Below, piece after piece: positions 3,259-59,639 of a DNA stretch of 64,000 bases. Both the position numbers and the translations under genes were made by a program. Within the stretch, counting starts at the first letter, position 1; every line of letters starts with the position of its first letter. Under the pieces are notes generated by a model. That model ran no database searches, was not told the origin of the DNA, and was given only the letters and a program-made list of their open reading frames with translations. Origin of the DNA: Escherichia coli (lineage in GTDB: Bacteria > Pseudomonadota > Gammaproteobacteria > Enterobacterales > Enterobacteriaceae); assembly GCF_011045215.1 (NCBI RefSeq), contig NZ_CP049202.1. One strand, 5' to 3'.

Positions 3259-4287
3259 CTAGTGCGGTGGCGGGGCAGCCAGCGTCAGTTCAAGCTGACG
3301 CAACTCCCTGATGGCCAGTCGCTTCAGATGGTCATCGGAACAAAAATAGGCTTCATCCGGCGGCAGACGCTTCCTGAGATACTCTGCCATCTCATGAATC
3401 TGCTGGTCGGCAGGCAGTTTCTTCAGGCGATTAGCACGCTTACAGGCTGCAGCTTTCGCCCGACGGTGTTTCAGCGCATCCTGGCTGCGCTGCAGATACC
3501 AGCGTTTTCTGGCCGCATGTACGGAGATATCTTCATCCTCACGCAGTACACCTTCCCGGATGAGCTGCTGGCGGATTTCACTTTCACGCAGCCGCTTCTG
3601 CTGCTGTTCGTGAAGTTTAACCATATCGACGCCCAGCATCTGCCACCCTGCCGGTGTTATCCAGACATAGCGCGGCAGACGCTGGCGGGTTTCACGGTCC
3701 CACATCGTTTCTTCCGACACACCCAGCACACCAAAACGTACCTGTTCGGTCAGCAGACGGGAAAGCCGGGAGACCGTCACTTCCAGTTCCGGAATAACCT
3801 TCCCCTTGCTGTCTTTCGGGCTGATTTCTCTGGCCAGACGGGAAACACTCATGCCTACGGTATGTGTGCCCGCATCACTGAAGCTGACCAGAACCGGCCA
3901 GATGGCATCGAGGAGGCGTTGTTTTTCCGGACGGAAAGCATATTTGCGACCGGCGAACGTCCGTTTCTGCACGTAAAAAGGATGCAGAGACATGTGCATG
4001 CGCAGGCTCTGTTCGCCAGTCACCGGGTCCTTTTTCACCAGGCGGTGATAAGCGTGCCCAAGCTGCCCGCTCAGCGCCTTATAGCGCGCAGGACGATACC
4101 AGGTCGGATTTTCGCATTTGGGTTTAGTGGAGTGCTCACCACGACGACGCTTTGTGCGCTTCCTTTCCGGTTCAACCAGGAAAGTGGTCGCCCTTCCCGC
4201 TTCATAATCTTCCCAGAAACGGATTTGCTCTTCGGGAGGCAACTGAGCCCAGTGGCCTGGACGGGTATTTTTAATCACCATACCCAC
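3259..4287 (-). CDS. replication-initiator-like ORF (342 aa, basic); relationship to RepA1 unresolved
   Basis: long ORF ending at the terminator and DnaA box; overlaps the RepA1-like ORF in another reading frame; opposite-strand 430-aa ORF judged a shadow. Confidence 0.45.
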
Positions 4288-4816
4288 TCCGTAAGACAGC
4301 CAGACGTGCTTCAGTCAGCGCCAACGGAAATATCCCTAAAAACTCAAAAAAACGAGGCGTCAGCGTTATTGTGCAGCGCTTATTGTAAAAATCTGATGAC
4401 GGGGAACAGACTATAAACCCAAAATCTTCTTCCAGTGATTTAATTGCTCTGACAGCTCGCTCAATGGCTAAATGACCATGAGCATTTTTTCTGGCTAATC
4501 CGCAATCAAGTGCAAGTTCGGTTATAGAACGATGCACTTGATTTGAAACAGGATCGTAGTAGAAGCACATGCCTTGCAACAGTGCATCAATAGCTCTGCG
4601 ACGAAGAACGGAAGGCTTGCGTTTACGTTTACCATTAGCGCGCGCGCACGCAGAAGCTATATCGAATGCAAATGTTTCGGTAAACCCCACCGCTTTGCCC
4701 ATTAGCTTCTCACAGAACGGCAGCGTCCTGGCACCTTCACGGGGTGTGAATACCGGATTAGGGTTCTTTACCTGACGGTAATACGTTTGTTGAAGATCAG
4801 TCACACCATCCTGCAC
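4271..4816 (-). CDS. repA1: RepA1-like replication initiator, N-terminal region (IncFII RepA family)
   Basis: N-terminus (V)[24 protein letters not shown] and [13 protein letters not shown] match IncFII RepA1 as recalled; ORF stops after 181 aa instead of about 285. Confidence 0.55.
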
Positions 4817-4839: not shown

Positions 4840-5100
4840 CACAGAAAGAAGTCTTGAACTTTTCCGGGCATATAACTATACTCCCCGCATAGCTGAATTG
4901 TTGGCTATACGGTTTTTAGATGGCCCCGGTAATCTTTCTAGCTCGCCAAAGTTAAAGAAGATTATCGGGGTTTTCACTTTTCTGGCCCCTGTAAATCCAC
5001 ATCAGAACCAGTTCCCTGCCACCTTATGGTGTGGCCAGCCATAAAATTCCTTAAACGATCAGCAATCTATCACTCACGCCTGAGATAAGCAATAATGTGA
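4840..5100. promoter_or_regulatory. copA antisense RNA / leader-peptide control region of the RepFIIA replicon (approximate)
   Basis: position between copB and repA1 with local hairpins; boundaries not determinable by eye. Confidence 0.3.
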
Positions 5101-5104
5101 ATAT

Positions 5105-5362
5105 TCACGAAATCGCTCTGCGTTTCAGCTCTGATTCAATCAGTTTTTCAAGCATCTGCGCCTGGGTAATACCTTCCTCATCCGCCAGTTCACTCAGCCT
5201 GTCTTTTAACCGGGCCTGGATAACCGCATGAAAAGCCTTATGAGTGTTGCTTCTGCGAGCCAGAGAAGCTCTTTGTCTCTCTCTGGCCGGAACAGGGTTA
5301 CCTTTCCGGTATGCACGCTTAGTGCCTGATGAGGAAGTCACTGCATTTTCTGTCTGCGGCAT
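5105..5362 (-). CDS. repA2: CopB/RepA2 copy-number repressor
   Basis: 85 aa; [11 protein letters not shown]...[16 protein letters not shown] resembles R100/R1 CopB as recalled; sits upstream of repA1. Confidence 0.8.
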
Positions 5363-5421
5363 CTCGCCTCCTCAATACTCAAACAGGGATCGTTTCGCAG
5401 AGGATACTACAGTTTTTTTTA

Positions 5422-5558
5422 ATCAGCGACTTGAAAGTTGTGACGATGACATGTGTTGGCGCACAAATCATGTCTGATTACGACCGTTTAATGTGATTTT
5501 GATAATGAAATGACTGAAAAGCAGGAAATGCCTTAACCTGTGTGCCCCCGGGCGGGGC
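5422..5558. repeat. direct repeat copy A (~135 bp)
   Basis: near-identical to 6552..6682 (TTGTGACGATGA...GCGCACAAATCATGTCTGATTACGACCGTTTAATGTGATTT...). Confidence 0.85.
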
Positions 5559-5669
5559 TGGCGGCATCAGAGATATGGAAGATAACCTGAGAGGTTATCA
5601 ATTAAAACTTATTAGTGCCCAAGTGTTACATATCATAAAGAAATGATGCCGCAATAAAATTGCTCAGTC

Positions 5670-6152
5670 TCAGACTTTATAAAATAAGGTGTCAGGTGCC
5701 ACAACTGACTGGACAAAACCAAAACGCTCATAAAACGCTCTGGCGTCATCATCAATTGCATGCACCATAACCGCCTTAACGCCAACCTGTTCAGCCACAT
5801 TTACAACCCGGTGAATAGCATCACTCAGCAGCCATTTACCGAAACCATGCCCCTGGGTACAAACATCAACAGCCAGACGCCCTAACAGAACAACAGGAAC
5901 AGGATTAGGCATGTTATGCCGCAAACTGCGCCCAAGCTCGGCATGTGTGACGGAACCCGTAGCTAATGAGTAGAACCCCACAACACGTAAAGTCCCCTCC
6001 AGGCAAATAACGAACGTGCGGGAAGCATTGAGCATCTGGTTTTTCATAGCCCGACCACGTAACCAGTTACTTAGCACCTCATTTCCACAGTCAAATGGCT
6101 GAAGTATATGCTCATCCGTCAGCAATGCCGGCGCGGTGACATTTATTTCCAT
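5670..6152 (-). CDS. GNAT-family acetyltransferase toxin (TacT/AtaT-like)
   Basis: 160 aa with GNAT-like core; overlaps the stop of an upstream DUF1778-like antitoxin ORF. Confidence 0.7.
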   Translation of the reverse strand: MEINVTAPALLTDEHILQPFDCGNEVLSNWLRGRAMKNQMLNASRTFVICLEGTLRVVGFYSLATGSVTHAELGRSLRHNMPNPVPVVLLGRLAVDVCTQGHGFGKWLLSDAIHRVVNVAEQVGVKAVMVHAIDDDARAFYERFGFVQSVVAPDTLFYKV

Positions 6153-45348: not shown

Positions 45349-45779
45349 AACACACCTTATTTATCTTCCTAAACAAACAATATGTTTTCGTGCTCTCTAT
45401 TCTTCACCTTACGACGAATCGCCATTAGATTCATCATACTAAAATTACGATTCACTATACGAATCAGCAATCATCAAATGACGAATCTAATATAGATTCA
45501 CGCGCCAAGTAAATAGATGTTTTCAAAAAAATAGTCATTACTGAATCATTGACAATTCGTGATAGATTCACTATCGAATCTATCACGAATCCCTGCAATA
45601 TAATTCAAAATTATATAATATAAATACACTTCATTAATTACATGATTTAAAACACAAATCAGCAAAAACTTGTTTTTGCGTGGGGTGTGGTGCTTTTGGT
45701 GGTGAGAACCACCAACCTGTTGAGCCTTTTTGTGGAGTGGGTTAAATTATTTACGGATAAAGTCACCAGAGGTGGAAAA
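45349..45779. promoter_or_regulatory. oriT with nic site between 45688 and 45689 on the plus strand, plus TraM-binding repeats
   Basis: TTTTTGCGTGGGGTGT/GGTGCTTTTGGTGGTGAGAACCACC matches the F oriT nick region; GAATC/GATTC repeat motifs at about 45400-45590. Confidence 0.85.
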
Positions 45780-47837: not shown

Positions 47838-48380
47838 AGCCCCCATCATCTTTTGAGTTTCGGGAGCCGCGGTTTTGACGTTTTGCGGGGACCTGCCTTT
47901 TGTTCCCTCCGGTATTCACCATCATCTTTTTGAGAACCTTCGCCGCAAGGGGCATCACTGCCACGGCCGGAAACGACTGTCCGGGGGCAGACCGCAAAAG
48001 TTTTTGCCTGCTTCTGGGCAAAAACTTTTGCGGGATGTGCATTTCACCCCTGGACTGGCGGAGACGGTTGTGGCTGTATCAGCCCCCGGCGACAGGGGAT
48101 TAAACAGGTGAATGGCACCGGACAGAACAACGGGCAGGGACCCGCCGCAGCGACGTGAAGCGCGGTTTGCGAAACGGCGTTGCCCCTTACATCCCGGCGG
48201 CCTTTTGCCGGGATGCCGGGAGCGCAGGCCACGGCGCGACAGAGGCGGCGCGACCGGAACGGTCGCTGCAAGCCCGGGGTTTCGCGTCAGGGATGGAAGC
48301 CCGCCAGGGCGGAGACAGCTTCGCTGGCTCCGTTCACGACAGCCCGCCCCGCCAGGGGGACGCCCGGAAAAGGCATAAGC
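47838..48380. repeat. ~540-bp structured repeat, copy 1 (candidate single-strand promoter, Frpo/ssi-like)
   Basis: about 95 percent identical to 53226..53790; contains perfect 15-bp inverted repeat GCAAAAGTTTTTGCC...GGCAAAAACTTTTGC and longer imperfect arms. Confidence 0.6.
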
Positions 48381-50347: not shown

Positions 50348-52306
50348 TCAGGCGGCATCAGCCAGGTTATCGGTGCGTTCAGTGGCATCCGTCTGTGGGC
50401 GTGGTGCACACATCCAGCCAGGCACCCAGCGGTTGTCTTTCATGTGGAACTCTGCATGTTCAGCCGCATCGCCTTTCTTCATCTTCTCCGCGTCCCGTGC
50501 AGCACCGGACAGTCCTGCCTCATTCAGGGCTGCGATAATCTGCGGCTTTTTCAGGTGTCCGAAGAAGTTTGCTTTTGTCGGCTGCCACCAGTCGCGCATG
50601 TGAAAGCCGATGGCGCTTTCCAGCGAATCCAGCGGACTGCGTGACGTGTGACCATACTCACGGGTCTGAACACCGTGGATGCTGCACGCAGTGCAGAAAC
50701 TGAGCAGGGACAACAGCACCTCCTGACTGAGTGACAGGAACGTCGCCATGTCCCGTGACCATCCCTCCGGTAACAGGGCCGCAAGACGGGCTTTTTCTGC
50801 CATCATCGCCATGAACGCGGCACCTTCCTTCCCTGACGGCGCATCGCTGGTCAGCGAATAATGTTTACATTCCAGGCTGATTTGTGCTGGTTTACTGTAC
50901 GCTCCGCTGCCAAACACATTCAGGCAGAGCGTCCATGCCAGCAGTGCCAGAGATTTGTCCGGTTGCTGCATGAGTGCTGTCTGGACTGCCAGCGTGCGTT
51001 CGGAAGACATTTTCGTCAGCAGTGGCAGACTGATTTCCTCCACTGATGCTTTCTCCTGCACCTGTTCCGTGCGGTCAGCGTCATCAGTCGCGTCATCTTC
51101 ACTGCGCAACTGCACACCACGCTGGACACATACGTTTCCATAACGCCAGGACACCACCACGCCACTTCCGGCACGCATCTCCGGCGTCCACGCCCTGACC
51201 TTCGCCATGCAGTCAATCAGCTTCATTTCTGCTTCCAGCAGGTCGGATTCCTCACACTGATTTTCCAGCGCGTCGTAACGTGCCATCAGTTCGTTCAGGC
51301 GTTCTTCTTCCGCCTCCGTCAGCACAGCTTCCGGCTCCGGCAGACTGCGGTATGTTCCGGCATCCTCACGGCAGAAACCGACAGGCTCCATACGTCCAGC
51401 ACACCATTCCCAGCCTTCGGCTTCCCGAAGGTGTTCAGCAACAGCCTGGAGTTTTTCCAGCAGGGCGGCATCGAGCGCCACGCAGTCCACATAGCCACCC
51501 TCGTTGTCGCTGAACAAATCGGTGCGCAGTTCATCTGGCGAGAAGGCATCAGCCCCCACGAAGCGGAATTTACTGTTCCCCGCCACCACCACTTCACTTT
51601 CGGTCACCAGACGACGAATGGTCTGTACTTCCGGTTTTCCGCCCCATCCCGACTGACAGGCAGCTTCAAACACCTGTACCTGACGTGCGGTGTCGTTCTC
51701 CAGCGCCAGCGCCTGACAGTGCTCTGTGGTGATGCGGTCTTCTGCCAGCGCATCGAGGATGACAGGCGCAAGGTCAGCCAGTTTCAGCATTCGCTGAACG
51801 TGGCGGGGTGAATAGCCCAGCAAATCACCGATTTGTGCAGGTGTTTTGCCTTCCTGCGCCATTGCGCGGAATCCGGCAATCTGTTCGGCAGGGTGCATAT
51901 CCCGACGATGACCGTTTTCAGTCATTGATGCGGCAGTCGCCAGTTCCTGCGGAATGACCTTCACACGGACAGGCCAGTCAGCCGGAATGATGCCACGCTC
52001 TGCCAGCATGTTGAGTGCTGCCAGTCGGCGACCACCTGCGGCGACACCGTGGCGGTCACCTGGCAGGGCATGAACAACCAGATTCTGTAACAGGCCGACA
52101 CCTTTAATGGAGTCCGCCAGTTCGCTGACGGACTCCGCAGAATACGGCACCGTGCGCACATTCAGCGGTGACTTAATCAGTGAGGACAGCGGCACGCTCA
52201 CTTCCTCCGTCTGCGCCAGCAGGGCAGACAGGGCAGTCTCCTGCTCTTTTGACGGTTTACGGCTGGATTTACGCTCCGTTTTTGTCTTAGACTCTGTAAC
52301 TGACAT
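50348..52306 (-). CDS. ParB-like nuclease-domain protein (leading region)
   Basis: 652 aa with N-terminal ParB/Srx-like region. Confidence 0.75.
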   Translation of the reverse strand: MSVTESKTKTERKSSRKPSKEQETALSALLAQTEEVSVPLSSLIKSPLNVRTVPYSAESVSELADSIKGVGLLQNLVVHALPGDRHGVAAGGRRLAALNMLAERGIIPADWPVRVKVIPQELATAASMTENGHRRDMHPAEQIAGFRAMAQEGKTPAQIGDLLGYSPRHVQRMLKLADLAPVILDALAEDRITTEHCQALALENDTARQVQVFEAACQSGWGGKPEVQTIRRLVTESEVVVAGNSKFRFVGADAFSPDELRTDLFSDNEGGYVDCVALDAALLEKLQAVAEHLREAEGWEWCAGRMEPVGFCREDAGTYRSLPEPEAVLTEAEEERLNELMARYDALENQCEESDLLEAEMKLIDCMAKVRAWTPEMRAGSGVVVSWRYGNVCVQRGVQLRSEDDATDDADRTEQVQEKASVEEISLPLLTKMSSERTLAVQTALMQQPDKSLALLAWTLCLNVFGSGAYSKPAQISLECKHYSLTSDAPSGKEGAAFMAMMAEKARLAALLPEGWSRDMATFLSLSQEVLLSLLSFCTACSIHGVQTREYGHTSRSPLDSLESAIGFHMRDWWQPTKANFFGHLKKPQIIAALNEAGLSGAARDAEKMKKGDAAEHAEFHMKDNRWVPGWMCAPRPQTDATERTDNLADAA

Positions 52307-53225: not shown

Positions 53226-53790
53226 TGTTTTCAGCCCCCATCATCTTTTGAGTTTCAGGAGCCGCGGTTTGACGTTTTGCGGGGACCTGCCTTTTGTTCC
53301 CTCCGGTATTCACCATCACCTTTTTGAGAACCTTCGCCGCAAGGGGCATCACTGCCACGGCCGGAAACGACTGTCCGGGGGCAGACCGCAAAAGTTTTTG
53401 CCTGCTTCTGGGCAAAAACTTTTGCGGGATGTGCATTTCACCCCTGGACTGGCGGAGACGGTTGTGGCTGTATCAGCCCCCGGCGACAGGGGATTAAACA
53501 GGTGAATGGCACCGGACAGAACAACGGGCAGGGCCCCGCCGCAACGACGGAGAGCGCGTGCGCGAAACGGCGTTGCCCCTTACATCCCGGCGGCCTTTTG
53601 TCGGGATGCCGGGAGCGCAGGCCACGGCGCGACAGAGGCGGCGCGACCGGAACGGTCGCTGCAAGCCAGGGTTTCGCGTCAGGGATAGAAGCCCGCCAGG
53701 GCGGAGACAGCTCCGCTGGCTCCGTTCACGACAGCCCGCCCCGCCCCGCCAGGGGGACGCCCGGAAAAGCCATAAACAGGAGAGGAACGG
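53226..53790. repeat. ~540-bp structured repeat, copy 2 (candidate single-strand promoter upstream of ssb)
   Basis: near-identical to 47838..48380, ends about 20 bp upstream of the ssb RBS. Confidence 0.6.
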
Positions 53791-54210: not shown

Positions 54211-54629
54211 TACCCGTTCTCCCCGTCCAGCGCCTGACGCATCACCCGCATAATCTCACGTTCTTCCCTGACAAATGCGTCACCGTCGCCCCCGTTCTCG
54301 CTCCCGACAGCATGGAGGCGATAAATTTCACTACCAGCCATCACCATCACTTTTTCCAGCAGCACCGCAGGGACTGTTACAAGACGGTTTACGCGCTTTT
54401 CCTCCATCAGTTCATTGACAATATCGGAAACAACTCTGTCACATGCGCCATATACAAAAGCATCGTCCAGCCGCTGCATGACGGTTTCCAGCTCATCGTC
54501 TGTCAGACTCCAGTCCTGGGCTATGTGACGCACATCCCCACGGGTCAGCACCACGGCAAAAACGCATTCACTGTCCGGCACGTCTGTATCCAGTACATCG
54601 CGAATGATTTCTTTAACAGTACAGTACAT
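54210..54629 (-). CDS. leading-region hypothetical protein, paralogous to 56333..56767
   Basis: 139 aa; shares MY.T..E...., SLTD.E..TV..R..D and VTVPA.LL motifs with the 155-aa ORF. Confidence 0.55.
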   Translation of the reverse strand: MYCTVKEIIRDVLDTDVPDSECVFAVVLTRGDVRHIAQDWSLTDDELETVMQRLDDAFVYGACDRVVSDIVNELMEEKRVNRLVTVPAVLLEKVMVMAGSEIYRLHAVGSENGGDGDAFVREEREIMRVMRQALDGENG

Positions 54630-54675
54630 GTTCTCGTCTCCTTTACAGGGGCGGCATTGCCGCCCCGTCCGTTAA

Positions 54676-55101
54676 TCAGTCCAGTGCCGCGTAAATCGCG
54701 TTGCATTCAGGGTGAAATTCGATGTGACGCCACAACTGCGCATCACGCATCCGGTAAAGCTGAGTCAGCCCCGCATCACCGCTGTCGTGGTACAGCCACA
54801 ACTGACGGTTAATCACAAGGGAAGTCAGAATGACACCTGCGGCATCAGCACTCACAGTACGGTCAAACCAGTTTGCACCGTTCACCATGTGGAAACGGTC
54901 GCCATCCGGCATCATGTAACCGCCACCGTCCGGCAGGCGGATGAAGTGCCAGAATCCGCCTTCATATTCCGGCATCATTTTTTTCGCCAGCGCGTATACA
55001 GACGCTTCGGCATACAGAAAATCCTGGCCAAACAGGTAAGGCAGAAAAGACAGACGGTCGCACTCTTCAACGTTCAGAGTGACAGATTTCGCATATTGCA
55101 T
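54676..55101 (-). CDS. antirestriction-like protein (KlcA/ArdB-type, tentative)
   Basis: 141-aa acidic protein at the position where F-like leading regions carry an antirestriction homolog; assignment from recall only. Confidence 0.45.
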
Positions 55102-55138
55102 GATGTTTTCCTCCGTTGTTCACATATTCCGCGACACC

Positions 55139-55372
55139 GGGCGGTGCCGTGCCTCCATAAAAGCCGGGCGATAAGGCGGGGATGCAGGGGCGCAAGGGAA
55201 GCCGCAGCCTGACGCACACGGCTGACGGGAGTTGGAGGGTGAGACCGCGAAATCTGAGCGGGTGAACGACCGGAAAATCACGGCAGACGGGAAGAAAGGA
55301 CCGGGTGACCGCAGCGGCAAAGCGTACCCTTGCATCCCTGCCAGCCCGGCTAAGATGGAGGCACGGCACAGC
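55139..55372. promoter_or_regulatory. long imperfect inverted repeat (candidate single-strand promoter)
   Basis: arms GGCGGTGCCGTGCCTCCAT... and ...ATGGAGGCACGGCACAGCC with about 60-nt pairing, directly upstream of 54676..55101. Confidence 0.45.
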
Positions 55373-55517
55373 CCGCACACGACGCTGAGGCCACATAACT
55401 GAAAAACCACAAGGCCATGCCCTGCATGGCCGGGTAAAGCGGAGCCGGCGGCGACTTCCTTTGTGCTCTGTCCGGGGACCGGCAGGAAAAAGGCGGGGAT
55501 TTACCCCGCCAACGTCA

Positions 55518-56288
55518 TCATTTCCGGATTTTTGCCAGGGCATCCGCCATGCTGCGGATTTCGGCCCGGGCTTCCCGGACCACCTCCCGCAGAACACCAC
55601 GGTCAAACCAGCGGCGGGGCGGTTCATCCGGTATACGCAGCACATCGCAGGCCAGCCCACTGGACAGGATATGCTCAATACAATCGCTGACCAGGTACAT
55701 TTCCACCGACGAAAAACGTGCTCCCCGGTTCACGATGGCATCGAGCACCACGGGCAGGTTTTCGTCATCTTCATCGAGCCAGCAGGGGTGATCGCTTTCC
55801 TTCACAACCAGACGAAAGCGGCGCGTCTGGCGGGTCAGCAACGTCTGACCGGTGGTGGTCAGCGCCGCCCGGATACGCCGCGCATCGTCTGCCACCTGGT
55901 AACAGATGCTTCGTATTGCATCGCGCACCGCCGCAAGTACAGCCCTGATTTCGTCTTCTGCCAGCCACTCACCGGCATACGGGAAAGACACCTGCGTTCC
56001 GTCTGCCGGAAGTACCGGCAGCGACTGCCACTGACTGCCGGACAGAACAAGTTCCGCCCCGGTTCCGGTCAGTTTCTGAATGGCAGAGGCCAGGTGCGGC
56101 GGCAGTACGCCGCCGTGACGGTTGATAAGTAACGTCGCCAGCCGGGGCGTATCCAGCCGCACGTAAATGCTGATCCAGCCCGGATGGTTCGGATTTCGCT
56201 GGTCAACATCCGTCTCTTCCGGCCAGCCCTGCGCCAGCAGCAGGTTACGGGCGTGGCGACAAATCAGTGCATTCAGCGTTTCGTTCAT
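55518..56288 (-). CDS. leading-region hypothetical protein (256 aa)
   Basis: long ORF with protein-like composition; no motif recognised. Confidence 0.55.
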
Positions 56289-56332
56289 GATTCATGGTCT
56301 CCCTGAATCGCCGCCCGCAGGCGGCGATAACA

Positions 56333-56767
56333 TCAGTCGTTTTCGCGTGTGTTGTTTTTCAGCAGGGCGCGGGCCTGATTAACCACCGCCAGTCGGCGGG
56401 TGACGCATTCCGGGACGACGAGGCCGTTATCACGGGCGGCCCACTCACGTTTCCACAGTGCCTGTTCAGCGGTCTGAATCAGGGACGCCAGCAGTTCAGC
56501 AGGGACGGTCACCTGGCGGTTTTCGCTCACGTTGCTGATAATCTCCATCACCGCGGCGGAAGAAATACCGGATTCAGTCCTCTGGTCTTCCGGGATGTCC
56601 TCCATGCGCGCCAGGACGGTCCTGATTTCATGATCGGTCAGAGAAATTTCCATACCGTCAGCCAGTGCCTGAATCTCTTCCGGAGACCAGATAACCAGCA
56701 TCAGCGGCGTGTCTCCCGGATACTTTGCTGCCAGCTCCCGGCAGAGCGTTTCGCATGTTCCGTACAT
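56333..56767 (-). CDS. leading-region hypothetical protein, paralogous to 54210..54629
   Basis: about 144 aa from internal start MYGTCETL... Confidence 0.55.
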   Translation of the reverse strand: MYGTCETLCRELAAKYPGDTPLMLVIWSPEEIQALADGMEISLTDHEIRTVLARMEDIPEDQRTESGISSAAVMEIISNVSENRQVTVPAELLASLIQTAEQALWKREWAARDNGLVVPECVTRRLAVVNQARALLKNNTREND

Positions 56768-56780
56768 TCTCGTCTCCTTC

Positions 56781-57002
56781 TCAATCTTTAAAGCACGCAT
56801 CCAGTTCCAGAATTTCGGTATATGCCTCCATCAGGAGGCGGTTTGCGCGAAACAACGTCTGACGCACCAGACGTTCCGGCAGGGTGTCAGCATTAAAGCT
56901 GTACCGCCGCTCCATCTCATTCATGGTTGTACGCAGGTCGCACATGGCATTGGCCACCTCCGCCACTTCGGCGCGAAGTTTTTCGTGTCCGGCATAGTTC
57001 AT
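56781..57002 (-). CDS. hypothetical small protein
   Basis: 73-aa ORF abutting the methyltransferase gene. Confidence 0.35.
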   Translation of the reverse strand: MNYAGHEKLRAEVAEVANAMCDLRTTMNEMERRYSFNADTLPERLVRQTLFRANRLLMEAYTEILELDACFKD

Positions 57003-57686
57003 TTACGCAGCCTCCGGCATAAACCAGTCATCATTCGCGGCCCCCTGCTGCATGGCCCGTTGCACGGCGGCAAGGCGTTGCTGCCCGGCACGGTGATACT
57101 GCTCAAGCAGCTCGATACCGATATACCGGCGTCCGGACTGGAGGGCGGCGACGCAGGTTGAGCCGCTGCCTGCAAACGGGTCCAGCACAATTGCGTTCGG
57201 GTGTGTGAAGCTCTCAATCAGCGGTTGCAGGCTGGTAACGGGCTTTTCCGTCGGGTGATGGCGATTGCCCGAATATTTCCAGCCCAGCACGTCCGGCGGC
57301 GGGTTTTGTGGCAGACGTGGACGGCCTTTTGCCAGGATGTAGGCGCATTCGTGGCGATAGCCCACATATGCGGCCTTCGATGTGTAGTTTTTGGTGAAGA
57401 CCAGGTGACCAACAACGCTGAATCCCGCATTTTTCCAGGCGGCAATAAAGCGATCGACGCGGTTCCAGCCATAGAAGCTCACCATTAACGCGTCTTTTTT
57501 CAGCACGCGGTACATCTCATTACAGGCCGGTTGCAGCCATTCATCGGTTTTATCTCCGGCGATGGTGCGCCCGGAACGGTCACGAAAACCGACGAGATAT
57601 GGCGGGTCAGTTAATATGAAATCAATGGCGTTATCAGGGATACGCGTCATAACATCGATGCAGTTACCAAGAACAAAACGGGACAT
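57003..57686 (-). CDS. orphan DNA methyltransferase (DPPY motif, N6-adenine/N4-cytosine class)
   Basis: 227 aa with DPPY catalytic motif and FAGSGST AdoMet-binding motif; no adjacent restriction endonuclease gene. Confidence 0.85.
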   Translation of the reverse strand: MSRFVLGNCIDVMTRIPDNAIDFILTDPPYLVGFRDRSGRTIAGDKTDEWLQPACNEMYRVLKKDALMVSFYGWNRVDRFIAAWKNAGFSVVGHLVFTKNYTSKAAYVGYRHECAYILAKGRPRLPQNPPPDVLGWKYSGNRHHPTEKPVTSLQPLIESFTHPNAIVLDPFAGSGSTCVAALQSGRRYIGIELLEQYHRAGQQRLAAVQRAMQQGAANDDWFMPEAA

Positions 57687-58034
57687 AATAACGCTCCTTC
57701 TCTTACAGAGGGCACCGGGAGGGCACCCCTGTGGTGCCCGTTCCCCGCTGCCTGTGGGCTGTTCACCGCGTCCGGTAACGGGTCAGGCCGACCGTGGAAT
57801 ATCGCAGCCGTCGTCTTTTTGACGGCGAGAATATGCCGCGAAAGCGGCTTGAAGGGCGTTCATCAGAAAAGGGCGACAGGCTGGCGTACACTGTCACCGG
57901 TACCAGCCGGGAGCAGTAAAAGCGCCCGTCCCGTGCCCGCCGGACGCGGGACACTGACCACAGGCAGCGTTCCTGCCGCGCCGCGTCAGCCGGCGCAGTA
58001 AAAAGAGGAGCACGGCGACATCCTTTGTCGGAAA

Positions 58035-58062
58035 AGAAACGGGCGGTTGCCCGCCCGTCTCC
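58035..58062 (-). terminator. rho-independent terminator-like hairpin after the 323-aa ORF
   Basis: GGGCGG-GCAA-CCGCCC then U-rich run on the minus strand. Confidence 0.45.
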
Positions 58063-58070
58063 GTCATACT

Positions 58071-58997
58071 TCATCCGCCATAATGCGCCACATTGTCGAC
58101 TATCCACGCAGGTCCGGTGACTTCCGGCAGCTCATCGTCATCTGTCGGGGAAGAGCATTCCAGTTCCCCCCACAGCACATCAACGAGCTCTCCGCGCTCA
58201 TACAACTGCCAGCCACAGAAATTGCAGCCCTGTTCGGCGTACCAGTGCTCCAGCGTGCAGCCGAAACGGCGGCTTAATTCTGCAACAACGTTGCTTTCCG
58301 GCTGACACCACGGCGTGTCGAAATCCACCTGAATGAAGTTGTCTCCCTGACGGCTGATATTCACCTCATACCTCACAGGCCACTTCACGCCATACTGTTC
58401 CGTATACCAGTGATACGCAGAAGGAACACCGTTCAGAACACCACCGTTAAAGCCATTCACTTCAACATCCAGGCGGGTGGGCAGAACCGTCAGCAGGTCA
58501 AACGGCATGGTTTTTTCCGGCAGTACATTGTCACACAGACGGTTCCACCACACCGATACATCCTCGTTACTCCAGAAGCCACACCAGTCACCTCTTTTGG
58601 CGGTGAAATGCACGGTGATGGTTTCTCTGACCTCATCCGGTAATCCTTCCCAGCGACGCTGGCCAGTACCACTCTGCAGCCAGAGTTCATGCAGCATCAG
58701 GCAGTTTTGCTCATCCAGCAGTACACCGTCCTGCAGGTATGTCAGCCAGCGGGTGAACGCGATATTCTCCGGCGATACAACACCACGTCCGGCAGCCGTC
58801 AGTCCGGGGCACGGTTCAAACTGCACATCTTCAGTGGTCTGCAGAAGTCCGGCACTTCCGGCCAGAAATAGCTGAATACCTTCATTTGTGGCGCGGCGAT
58901 AAAGCGGTATGACTGCACCGCTGGCCAGTCGTTTAATCTCAGCGATCTGTGCCGGTTCACCAGAAAAATACATACGATTCGAGCACCAGTTTAGCAT
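58071..58997 (-). CDS. leading-region hypothetical protein (about 309 aa)
   Basis: W-rich ORF with its own upstream hairpin and downstream terminator. Confidence 0.55.
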   Translation of the reverse strand: MLNWCSNRMYFSGEPAQIAEIKRLASGAVIPLYRRATNEGIQLFLAGSAGLLQTTEDVQFEPCPGLTAAGRGVVSPENIAFTRWLTYLQDGVLLDEQNCLMLHELWLQSGTGQRRWEGLPDEVRETITVHFTAKRGDWCGFWSNEDVSVWWNRLCDNVLPEKTMPFDLLTVLPTRLDVEVNGFNGGVLNGVPSAYHWYTEQYGVKWPVRYEVNISRQGDNFIQVDFDTPWCQPESNVVAELSRRFGCTLEHWYAEQGCNFCGWQLYERGELVDVLWGELECSSPTDDDELPEVTGPAWIVDNVAHYGG

Positions 58998-59019
58998 GGG
59001 AATTCTCCTCTCACATGCG

Positions 59020-59195
59020 GCCTCCATCAGGCCGTGCCGCACCTGTAACCGGGCGACCGCATACGAATGCAGGTGCGGCCCCGAAGCCGCAGCGCGTGGA
59101 GGAGGAACGACGAAACGTGACCGGGTGAGGAGGCCTGCGACAGCGACACACTTGCATCGGATGCAGCCCGGTTAACGTGCCGGCACGGCCTGGGT
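59020..59195. promoter_or_regulatory. long imperfect inverted repeat (candidate single-strand promoter)
   Basis: arms CAGGCCGTGCCGCACCTG and GTGCCGGCACGGCCTGG with nested inner arms, about 25 bp upstream of the 58997 start. Confidence 0.4.
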
Positions 59196-59351
59196 AACCA
59201 GGTATTTTGTCCACAGAACCGTGCACAAAATGCTGTGGATAAGCTGGACACAACAGTCCACAGCAGGCATACAGCCACACTCTCAGAGAATTGAGCGTTT
59301 TTTAGTCACAATAATGACATTTGACTGTGTGTGGATTCAGTTATTAGAATA

Positions 59352-59367
59352 CTGTATATACATACAG
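59352..59367. promoter_or_regulatory. LexA (SOS) box
   Basis: CTGTATATACATACAG fits CTGT-N8-ACAG, 24 bp upstream of the impC-like start. Confidence 0.75.
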
Positions 59368-59390
59368 CAAAAGAAAAGGGAGATGAGAAC

Positions 59391-59639
59391 ATGATCCGCA
59401 TTGAAATTCTTTTCGACCACCAGAGCACAAAAAACCTCAAATCAGGCACACTTCAGGCGCTACAGAATGAAATCGAACAACGTCTGAAACCACACTACCC
59501 GGAAATCTGGCTACGTATAGACCAGGGCAGCGCCCCGTCTGTATCTGTCACTGGAGCCCGCAACGACAAGGATAAAGAACGTATCCAGTCTCTGCTGGAA
59601 GAAATCTGGCAGGACGACAGCTGGCTGCCCGCAGCATGA
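59391..59639 (+). CDS. impC: DinI-like protein (ImpC-type)
   Basis: 82 aa from ATG with GGGAG RBS; DinI-like sequence; first gene of an SOS operon. Confidence 0.7.
   Translation: MIRIEILFDHQSTKNLKSGTLQALQNEIEQRLKPHYPEIWLRIDQGSAPSVSVTGARNDKDKERIQSLLEEIWQDDSWLPAA

Follow-up and report, generated by a model that had tools for sequence, protein, structure and literature searches.

A short class 2 hairpin before a DUF1281 gene, probably a further member of the single-stranded-DNA promoters of an IncF leading region

A stretch of 64,000 nucleotides (nt) from Escherichia coli contig NZ_CP049202.1, hereafter the window, recognized by sequence comparison as IncF plasmid DNA, contains two long imperfect hairpins at 55138-55375 (H1) and 59023-59197 (H2), each located just upstream of a gene of the conjugative leading region. 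Both are likely to be single-stranded-DNA (ssDNA) promoters of class 2. The original prediction had already compared them to ssDNA promoters, but considered them non-repeat hairpins, while they turn out to be diverged copies of one family. Sequence comparison identifies H1 with the class 2 promoter ssp2, also called Frpo3, already known and characterised. H2 is a diverged, shorter copy of the same element, apparently unreported and probably to be added to the family. Its membership of class 2 is very likely, and its activity as an early promoter is given a chance slightly better than even. The new part, a modest one, consists of H2 as a short class 2 member and of class 2 as a modular cassette, H1 being already established. 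The two hairpins, their promoter-like arms and the genes behind them are listed below.

55138-55375, plus strand: H1, class 2 ssDNA promoter (ssp2, Frpo3) in its long form, with 222 nt between the outer core ends
55330-55356, plus strand: promoter-like arm of H1, composed of TTGCAT (55330-55335), a 15-nt spacer and TAAGAT (55351-55356); it is the 3' arm and reads as non-template strand
54676-55101, minus strand: klcA/ardB-type antirestriction gene, yfgB homologue, 141 amino acids (aa), from the list of open reading frames (ORFs); annotated as 'antirestriction protein' in near-identical plasmids
59023-59197, plus strand: H2, short form of the class 2 family, with 159 nt between the core ends
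59152-59178, plus strand: promoter-like arm of H2, composed of TTGCAT (59152-59157), a 15-nt spacer and TAACGT (59173-59178)
58071-58997, minus strand: gene of the DUF1281 family (YfdA/YccB/YafB/YfaB), 308 aa; Pfam DUF1281 4.5e-49, DUF1281_C 1e-14
58035-58062, minus strand: terminator-like GC-rich hairpin with a T-run, 8 nt past the DUF1281 stop codon; RNA fold of -27 kcal/mol, z-score -3.6

Both inverted repeats, predicted at 55139-55372 and 59020-59195, were detected by an inverted-repeat search: the arms of H1 (55138-55169 and 55344-55375) are 32 nt long and 88% complementary, those of H2 (59028-59054 and 59166-59192) 27 nt long and 81% complementary. Folding of the plus strand as ssDNA produced a single long imperfect hairpin for 55125-55390, with an energy of -74.3 kcal/mol and a z-score of -6.9 (0 of 200 shuffled sequences as good), and a similar, weaker one for 59010-59210, of -48.1 kcal/mol and z-score -2.4 (1 of 200 as good). 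The anticipated ssDNA folding is therefore strongly stable for H1, while H2 does fold, but by energy alone stands only marginally above background. The core predicted to be common to the arms is present without mismatches in both hairpins, as GCCGTGCC at 55146-55153 and its complement GGCACGGC at 55360-55367 in H1, and at 59031-59038 and 59182-59189, respectively, in H2. H2 also contains the internal motifs AAGCCGCAGC (59084-59093) and CCGGGTGA (59121-59128), common to the family. The same TTGCAT-N15-TAnnnT arm is carried by both, so that hexamers resembling -35 and -10 boxes are rebuilt within the stem, reading out through the 5' arm towards the gene. Judging from the A located 7 nt past the hexamer, the transcript of H1 would start opposite A55363, on template T55150; that of H2 would start opposite A59185, on template T59035.

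Each hairpin lies directly upstream of a leading-region gene templated by the transferred (T) strand. The placement relative to the first start codon, expected to be the same, is similar and not identical, as the core ends 44 nt before the ATG in H1 and 33 nt before it in H2. The klcA/ardB-like gene is the first of the H1 unit and has a Shine-Dalgarno sequence; the DUF1281 gene forms a single-gene unit behind H2, with the Shine-Dalgarno sequence GAGGAG. The latter ORF, given as 309 aa long, measures 308 aa; the terminator attributed to it was found as the terminator-like hairpin at 58035-58062, which the pattern-based terminator scan did not list. A sigma-70 pattern scan between 54.5 and 59.5 kb revealed no conventional double-stranded promoter facing either klcA or the DUF1281 gene.

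H1 is 94-95% identical to the hairpins upstream of klcA and ardA in pESBL (NC_018659) and to that upstream of klcA in F (NC_002483). In pESBL, an IncI1 plasmid, Wen et al. (2025, PMC12672017) identified six ssDNA promoters by 5'RACE and by RNA-seq on purified transconjugants. There they are divided into class 1 (ssi1-3, Frpo-like), class 2, upstream of klcA and ardA, and class 3, upstream of M.EcoGIX; classes 2 and 3 are described as conserved in F, and the start of the element near-identical to H1 was mapped by 5'RACE in transconjugants. In F, deletion of ssp2 abolishes protection, lowers transfer into restricting hosts and removes a UvrD-resolved stall of complementary-strand synthesis (Fraikin et al. 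2026, bioRxiv 10.64898/2026.01.09.698686). The same element has been named Frpo3 (bioRxiv 10.1101/2025.04.03.647016). Reading H1 as a promoter is thus supported by the experiments of others on near-identical orthologues; for H2 the same interpretation comes from comparison, namely from profile, covariation, promoter arm, position and coupling to DUF1281.

The family was collected by means of a degenerate pattern, derived from the right arms and scanned over one genome per species, which returned 66 stretches. In about 50 distinct ones, all from Enterobacterales plasmid-like contigs, the right-arm core pairs with GCCGTG.C, located 159-231 nt upstream. The family splits into a long class of 219-231 nt and a short class of 159-171 nt, which includes H2. 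Pattern matches found in Streptomyces sp. SDr-06, Mycobacterium, Bacteroidetes and similar, lacking the TTG box and the hairpin, were discarded as chance occurrences. In an alignment of 35 sequences (A2), H2 aligns over about 65 nt on each side, including GCCGTG, CGGGC, AAGCCGCAGC, CCGGGTGA and CTTG, motifs which extend beyond the search pattern. A profile hidden Markov model (HMM), built without any copy of H2, recovered H2 with an E-value of 6.4e-14 (47 bits, profile positions 9-235) and H1 with one of 1e-56 (nhmmer), and matched nothing else on the plus strand of the window. In the comparison with the known class 2 hairpins, H2 shows 74% similarity over the 42 nt of the promoter arm. By these comparisons H1 and H2 are homologous, and not independent inventions.

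The alignment was also used to derive a consensus structure (RNAalifold), consisting of 33 base pairs, all of which are formed by H1 as well as by H2. Standard pairs occupy 96.7% of the cells on the consensus, against 34-44% in controls with the 3' partners shifted by 1-3 columns. Both bases have changed in 12 of the pairs, against 2-7 in these controls, and the covariation score is 0.28, against at most 0.06; this score was reached by none of 500 shuffles, a count which overstates the significance, the A2 sequences being mutually related. H2 itself contributes two standard pairs differing on both sides from the commonest ones, A-T for G-C at columns 26-229 and T-A for G-C at columns 53-203. 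The template strand folds better than its complement in 35 of the 35 sequences, by a mean of 8 kcal/mol, in agreement with selection for folding of the incoming strand. In the -35-like box, the TTG, not included in the search pattern, is nearly invariant across the family.

These data bear on the possibility that the inverted repeats arose by chance in GC-rich DNA, or that the structures operate in RNA, as attenuators or leaders of transcripts coming from upstream promoters. The low z-score of H2, and windows of similar energy found inside genes, would agree with such an origin; the covariation over 35 sequences, the H1-H2 homology, the presence of terminator-like sites just upstream of H1 and just downstream of the DUF1281 gene, and the fact that the mRNA-sense strand is the one which folds worse, all contradict it. 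A search of the whole window against Rfam, which matched only traJ 5'UTR, FinP, CopA, sok and AS-traG, also revealed no family at H1 or H2, because no curated family exists for such elements. Chance or RNA-level structure is effectively refuted.

In about 50 family members the distance from the core end to the ATG is 29-44 nt, and the gene is of one of four kinds: klcA/ardB (141-143 aa), ardA (166-168 aa), methylase (214-229 aa) and DUF1281 (308 aa). All of the 11 DUF1281 loci examined carry a hairpin 27-35 nt upstream, which is of class 2 in 10 cases and of class 3 in one; in six of these loci the protein is just 43-49% identical to that of the window. The class 2 loci within this range of protein identity include those of Pantoea brenneri, P. 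dispersa, P. eucrina, Pantoea sp. SS70 and Erwinia persicina. The DUF1281-linked hairpins were found by the profile, separately from the pattern that fetched the loci, and the TAACGT hexamer of H2 recurs in those of P. brenneri, P. dispersa and E. persicina. A class 3 hairpin, 77% identical to that of the window, precedes the DUF1281 gene in a K. pneumoniae IncFIA/FII plasmid. From such arrangements the hairpin classes appear to be interchangeable cassettes placed before the same genes; class 2 itself is a modular cassette, occurring in a long and a short version and spread across Enterobacterales plasmids.

When the IncF window, pESBL (IncI1), an IncK plasmid and F are compared, H2 and its leader show 1-3 differences over 197 nt, all of them apical, against 46-60 over the 930 nt of the DUF1281 coding sequence; conservation is 99.4-100% for H2 and 93.5-95.1% for the adjacent coding sequence. 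pESBL carries H2 at 99.4% identity before its own DUF1281 gene, and H2 is present in at least 4,415 PLSDB records.

A number of observations weigh against the activity of H2. It is the least stable member of the family, folding at -48 to -51 kcal/mol where the remaining short forms range from -51 to -59, and the sole one whose two strands show no asymmetry in folding (-1 kcal/mol). When the leading region is folded in sliding windows of 300 nt, H2 reaches -69.3 kcal/mol, near the values of some coding windows, and so falls short of the limit of less than -75 kcal/mol per 300-nt window used for mining (Wen et al.), which is passed by four peaks (-90.1, -95.9, -79.5 and -89.3), that of H1 being -79.5. 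This cut-off is a detection threshold and not a biological definition, and could explain how H2 was missed; energy alone was rejected as a criterion for H2, being uninformative when similar values occur in coding windows. In the folds of H1 and of the majority of the family, a 3x3 mismatch loop lies opposite positions -11 to -9, and the initial T of TTG forms a pair with G, whereas in H2 the A at -11 is paired, at the edge of a loop of 2-3 nt. For a sigma-70 promoter a spacer of 15 nt is short. F carries a frameshifted DUF1281 gene, and the unit is therefore dispensable there. The pESBL study, as far as its available text extends, reports six induced operons and six promoters, none at the position of H2 (PMC12672017); as that work was guided by RNA-seq, H2 may be weak or silent. 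Finally, the search pattern fixed GCCCGG, TA...T and G.CACGGC in the right arm, so that their invariance in A2 is not independent evidence, and the invariance of TA...T and of the right-arm core was discarded as such. Evidence independent of the pattern lies in the left arm, in the TTG box and in the hairpins linked to DUF1281, which end in GGCACGGT and were found by the profile without being pattern matches.

H2 might accordingly be a decayed relic of a class 2 promoter, deprived of its apical part and of most of its activity, with the DUF1281 gene either silent early after entry or served by another signal. Its low stability and its symmetric folding, its being the shortest member, the altered -10 bubble, its place outside the six pESBL promoters and the DUF1281 pseudogene of F are all features of the kind that decay would leave. 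However, across IncF, IncI1 and IncK, H2 and its leader have changed less than the coding and intergenic DNA around them, with differences confined to the apical part, and none of the 33 consensus pairs has been lost. Moreover, in Pantoea and Erwinia plasmids, short forms of 168-171 nt are the rule, before intact methyltransferase, klcA and DUF1281 genes; the Klebsiella plasmid has swapped the element for a class 3 hairpin instead of losing it; and the pattern scan offered no alternative double-stranded promoter. The relic explanation is considered unlikely, and an active early promoter is cautiously preferred on comparative grounds.

In F (locus L004, NC_002483), the DUF1281 gene, of yfdA type, lies at 4853-5778 and is split by the frameshift into two pieces, detected by tblastn as residues 1-163 and 163-309. 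It is absent from the gene table; the H2 upstream of it is intact, at 98.3% identity.

With respect to class 2 as known from pESBL and F (PMC12672017; ssp2; Frpo3), H1 has the same position before a klcA/ardB gene and the same fold. H2 has in common with class 2 about 65 basal nt in each arm, the TTGCAT-N15-TAnnnT sequence of the promoter arm, the stem base GCCGTGCC/GGCACGGC, the internal motifs AAGCCGCAGC and CCGGGTGA, its orientation and its distance from the start codon; it differs in lacking about 60 nt of the apical part, in being about 25 kcal/mol less stable, in showing no T-strand bias, in the placement of the -10 mismatch loop and in preceding a DUF1281 gene. The ssDNA promoters of class 1, Frpo/ssiD of F and ssi1-3 of ColIb-P9 (Masai & Arai 1997; Bates et al. 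1999; Couturier et al. 2023, PMC9849209), follow the same principle, i.e. a long imperfect T-strand hairpin which rebuilds -35 and -10 boxes, works only as ssDNA and drives leading-region genes, but they are larger (about 330 nt), more stable and without detectable sequence similarity to H1 or H2. Accordingly, a BLAST search of the window with F ssiD (sequence from PMC11541004, supplementary file 4) matched the two large repeats at 47840-48189 and 53235-53582, which contain Frpo, and not H1 or H2. Class 3 (ssp3) shares principle and region as well, but is an unrelated sequence family: in all loci a class 3 query matched sites distinct from every class 2 match, and it is class 3 which takes the place of H2 before DUF1281 in the K. 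pneumoniae IncFIA/FII plasmid.

Described counterparts of H2 include candidates from an insect-gut metagenome (Candidatus Erwinia dacicola contigs), reported as Frpo*1, Frpo*3 and Frpo'4 (Samuel et al. 2024, PMC11541004, supplementary file 4). There they were rated low-certainty, with 'distant similarity to Frpo', and were not joined in one family with the klcA and ardA promoters. Inspection of the listed sequences indicates that Frpo'4 is a long class 2 hairpin, while Frpo*1 and Frpo*3 are short forms of 169-170 nt (corresponding to L044 in our set), with the size class and architecture of H2; the candidates differ from it in preceding klcA-like and methylase genes and in being 25-35% diverged. 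H2 is not listed in the available part of PMC12672017, nor in 10.64898/2026.01.09.698686 or bioRxiv 10.1101/2025.04.03.647016, and a literature search on DUF1281, ssp2 and ssp3 found no publication naming an element at its position. DUF1281 itself is an uncharacterised family enriched in leading regions (PMC11541004, supplementary file 3). An NCBIfam search gave no match for DUF1281, KlcA or the neighboring small ORFs, and named only the methylase.

The orientation of the region was established as follows. The sequence GCGTGGGGTGTGGTGCTTT occurs once in the window, at 45678-45696 on the plus strand; written as GCGTGGGGTGT/GGTGCTTT, it is the nick-site sequence of an F-type origin of transfer (oriT), an exact single match not reproduced in 100 shuffles. 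The traJ 5'UTR and FinP, detected by Rfam at 44.8 kb on the minus strand, lie on the opposite side. As the nick sequence sits on the plus strand, this is the T strand, and the DNA to the right of the nick therefore enters the recipient first. The leading region extends from the nick to about 59.2 kb. All its genes between 46 and 59 kb, as deduced from the ORF list and annotated relatives, are on the minus strand and have the incoming strand as template; they include hok, psiA, psiB, a ParB-like gene, ssb, the klcA/ardB-like gene, a methylase gene and DUF1281. Gene orientation flips at 59.3 kb, where a LexA-controlled impC-umuD operon begins on the plus strand. A megablast search with 54600-59400 matched at least 5,000 plasmid records, the best being IncFIA/FIB/FIC E. 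coli plasmids at 99.9% identity.

The following mechanism may be proposed. The plus strand would enter the recipient 5' to 3' from the nick at 45.7 kb, and each element would fold on it. The 3' arm would provide the non-template face of a sigma-70 promoter (TTGCAT, 15 nt, TAAGAT or TAACGT) and the 5' arm the template, with mismatches and G-T wobbles at promoter-critical positions. The duplex made on the 5' arm would read CTGCAT...TTTTAT in H1 or CTGCAT...TACAGG in H2, and would presumably be dead once double-stranded; as critical bases are lost there, this would offer a simple basis for activity restricted to ssDNA. Host RNA polymerase would start within the invariant GGCACGGC/GCCGTGCC stem base and run leftwards out of the hairpin, from about 55150 and about 59035, producing leaders of about 50 nt for the KlcA/ArdB gene (H1) and of about 38 nt for the DUF1281 gene (H2), both ending in good Shine-Dalgarno sequences. 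Complementary-strand synthesis would then separate the arms by 110-170 bp and switch the promoter off. In this way H2 would give DUF1281 a transient expression unit of its own, where the leading region has its outer edge. That H2 belongs to the family, and that its structure and position are conserved, is observed; for its activity and start site the scheme is a prediction.

The hairpins might alternatively act chiefly on DNA synthesis, as ssi priming sites or roadblocks, with promoter-like hexamers of secondary importance and H2 as the first barrier or primer site met by synthesis that arrives from the maintenance region. F ssp2, equivalent to H1, is in fact a mapped, UvrD-resolved roadblock, but its promoter function was demonstrated too, and replacement by ssp3 partly rescues the phenotype, so that the two roles coexist (10.64898/2026.01.09.698686). 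Frpo transcripts are known to prime DNA synthesis (Masai & Arai 1997, as reported by citing papers). H2 is placed at the boundary of the T-strand-templated block and adjoins conserved DnaA boxes able to form small hairpins; as the weakest hairpin it is, however, a poor candidate roadblock. Furthermore, the constant distance of 29-44 nt to a start codon bearing a Shine-Dalgarno sequence, in four unrelated gene families, denotes a constraint of transcription or translation and not of replication. A role chiefly in DNA synthesis is considered very improbable.

The segment 59205-59265, located between H2 and the impC promoter, contains three copies of a GTCCACA/TGTGGA motif and folds as ssDNA into two small hairpins. 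Its DnaA boxes are:

59207-59215, plus strand: DnaA-box motif TTGTCCACA, beside H2
59234-59242, minus strand: perfect DnaA box TTATCCACA, contained in a 9-bp ssDNA stem (-16.3 kcal/mol, z-score -3.4)

IncF, IncI1 and IncK plasmids retain both boxes; in IncI1 and IncK the second is changed to TTATTCACA, which likewise conforms to the consensus. One is retained in the Klebsiella plasmid, with differing flanks, and they are absent from Pantoea and Erwinia plasmids. Over the whole window the number of DnaA boxes is not above chance. They could serve the regulation of the divergent promoters, or could be an A-site-like priming signal, the A-site, or ABC-primosome ssi (Masai & Arai), being defined by a DnaA box held in the stem of an ssDNA hairpin.

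Published maps contain four ssDNA promoters for F and six for pESBL. H2 could be an unmapped one, fifth for F-type and seventh for pESBL-type plasmids, belonging to a short class 2 subclass which is standard in Pantoea and Erwinia; together with the DnaA-box mini-hairpins at 59205-59265 it could form a boundary module, combining an early DUF1281 promoter with a loading point that is A-site-like and depends on DnaA; complementary-strand synthesis would enter the leading region there and proceed towards ssp3, ssp2 and Frpo. In this complete form the proposal is quite improbable. The activity of H2 matters on its own account, as ssDNA promoters determine which plasmid genes are on during the minutes that immediately follow conjugative entry, the time at which anti-restriction and anti-SOS functions are needed. 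If H2 is active, thousands of IncF, IncI and IncK resistance plasmids have a promoter that the map lacks, and DUF1281 becomes a candidate early establishment or anti-defence factor. On the practical side, a profile combining sequence and structure finds class 2 promoters where energy thresholds and BLAST with Frpo fail.

The remaining elements of the region are the following.

47840-48189, plus strand: class 1 ssDNA promoter, Frpo1-type, first large repeat; 95% identity to F ssiD, sliding-fold minimum -90.1
53235-53582, plus strand: class 1 ssDNA promoter, Frpo2-type, second large repeat, upstream of ssb; 93% identity to F ssiD, sliding-fold minimum -95.9
57746-57969, plus strand: class 3 ssDNA promoter hairpin (ssp3), an inverted repeat; fold of -93.6 kcal/mol, z-score -6.5; 96% identical to the pESBL and F regions
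55492-55510, minus strand: intrinsic-terminator-like site from the pattern scan, closing the upstream unit (methylase to a 256-aa ORF) just before H1
55413-55431, minus strand: second intrinsic-terminator-like site from the pattern scan
59321-59369, plus strand: conventional sigma-70-like promoter TTGACT-18-TAGAAT, the only one between 54.5 and 59.5 kb

The suggestion that each leading-region unit has its own ssDNA-promoter-like element is borne out by this layout, such elements being found at 47840-48189, 53235-53582, 55138-55375, 57746-57969 and 59023-59197, with terminator-like sites between units. The class 3 hairpin sits before a methylase gene of M.EcoGIX type (57003-57686; NF010253, 2e-149). 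An annotated 103-aa 'hypothetical protein' (57763-58074, minus strand), present in many plasmid records and without NCBIfam match, overlaps both this hairpin and the terminator-like hairpin, and is probably not a gene. The promoter at 59321-59369 is overlapped by a LexA-box-like sequence, CTGTATATACATACAG (59352-59367), and drives the operon of DinI-like impC and umuD, which delimits the block of T-strand-templated genes on its outer side.

Some further observations concern the collected loci. In Erwinia sp. OLFS4 (locus L033, 2346-2589), a class 2 hairpin that precedes an ardA-like gene matches the search pattern with both its arms, GCCGTGCCGCTACTGTAGCCGGGC being the exact complement of the right arm; its -10 region is fully paired, without mismatch loop, and the -10 bubble is therefore not universal in the family. 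K. pneumoniae pCRE-236-2 (L071) contains two class 3-like hairpins (2236-2453 and 4095-4372), before DUF1281 and before the methylase gene, and no class 2 hairpin. Near-identical class 2 or H2 sequences of E. coli type were found in assemblies labelled as Oscillibacter, Oscillospiraceae, Collinsella and Lachnospiraceae metagenome-assembled genomes, Streptomyces morookaense, Alicyclobacillus fastidiosus, Raphidiopsis brookii and Aeromicrobium (L008-L011, L013, L018, L041, L046, L059, L067, L068; L013, L041 and L059 contain just the right arm of H2), most likely as a result of enterobacterial plasmid contamination or mis-binning. Within the window, a 652-aa ParB-like ORF (50348-52306, minus strand), downstream of the Frpo2 copy, matches YfjB of F by position and annotation; YfjB has been renamed HerB and called a host-expression reprogrammer in a July 2026 preprint (PMC13370423).

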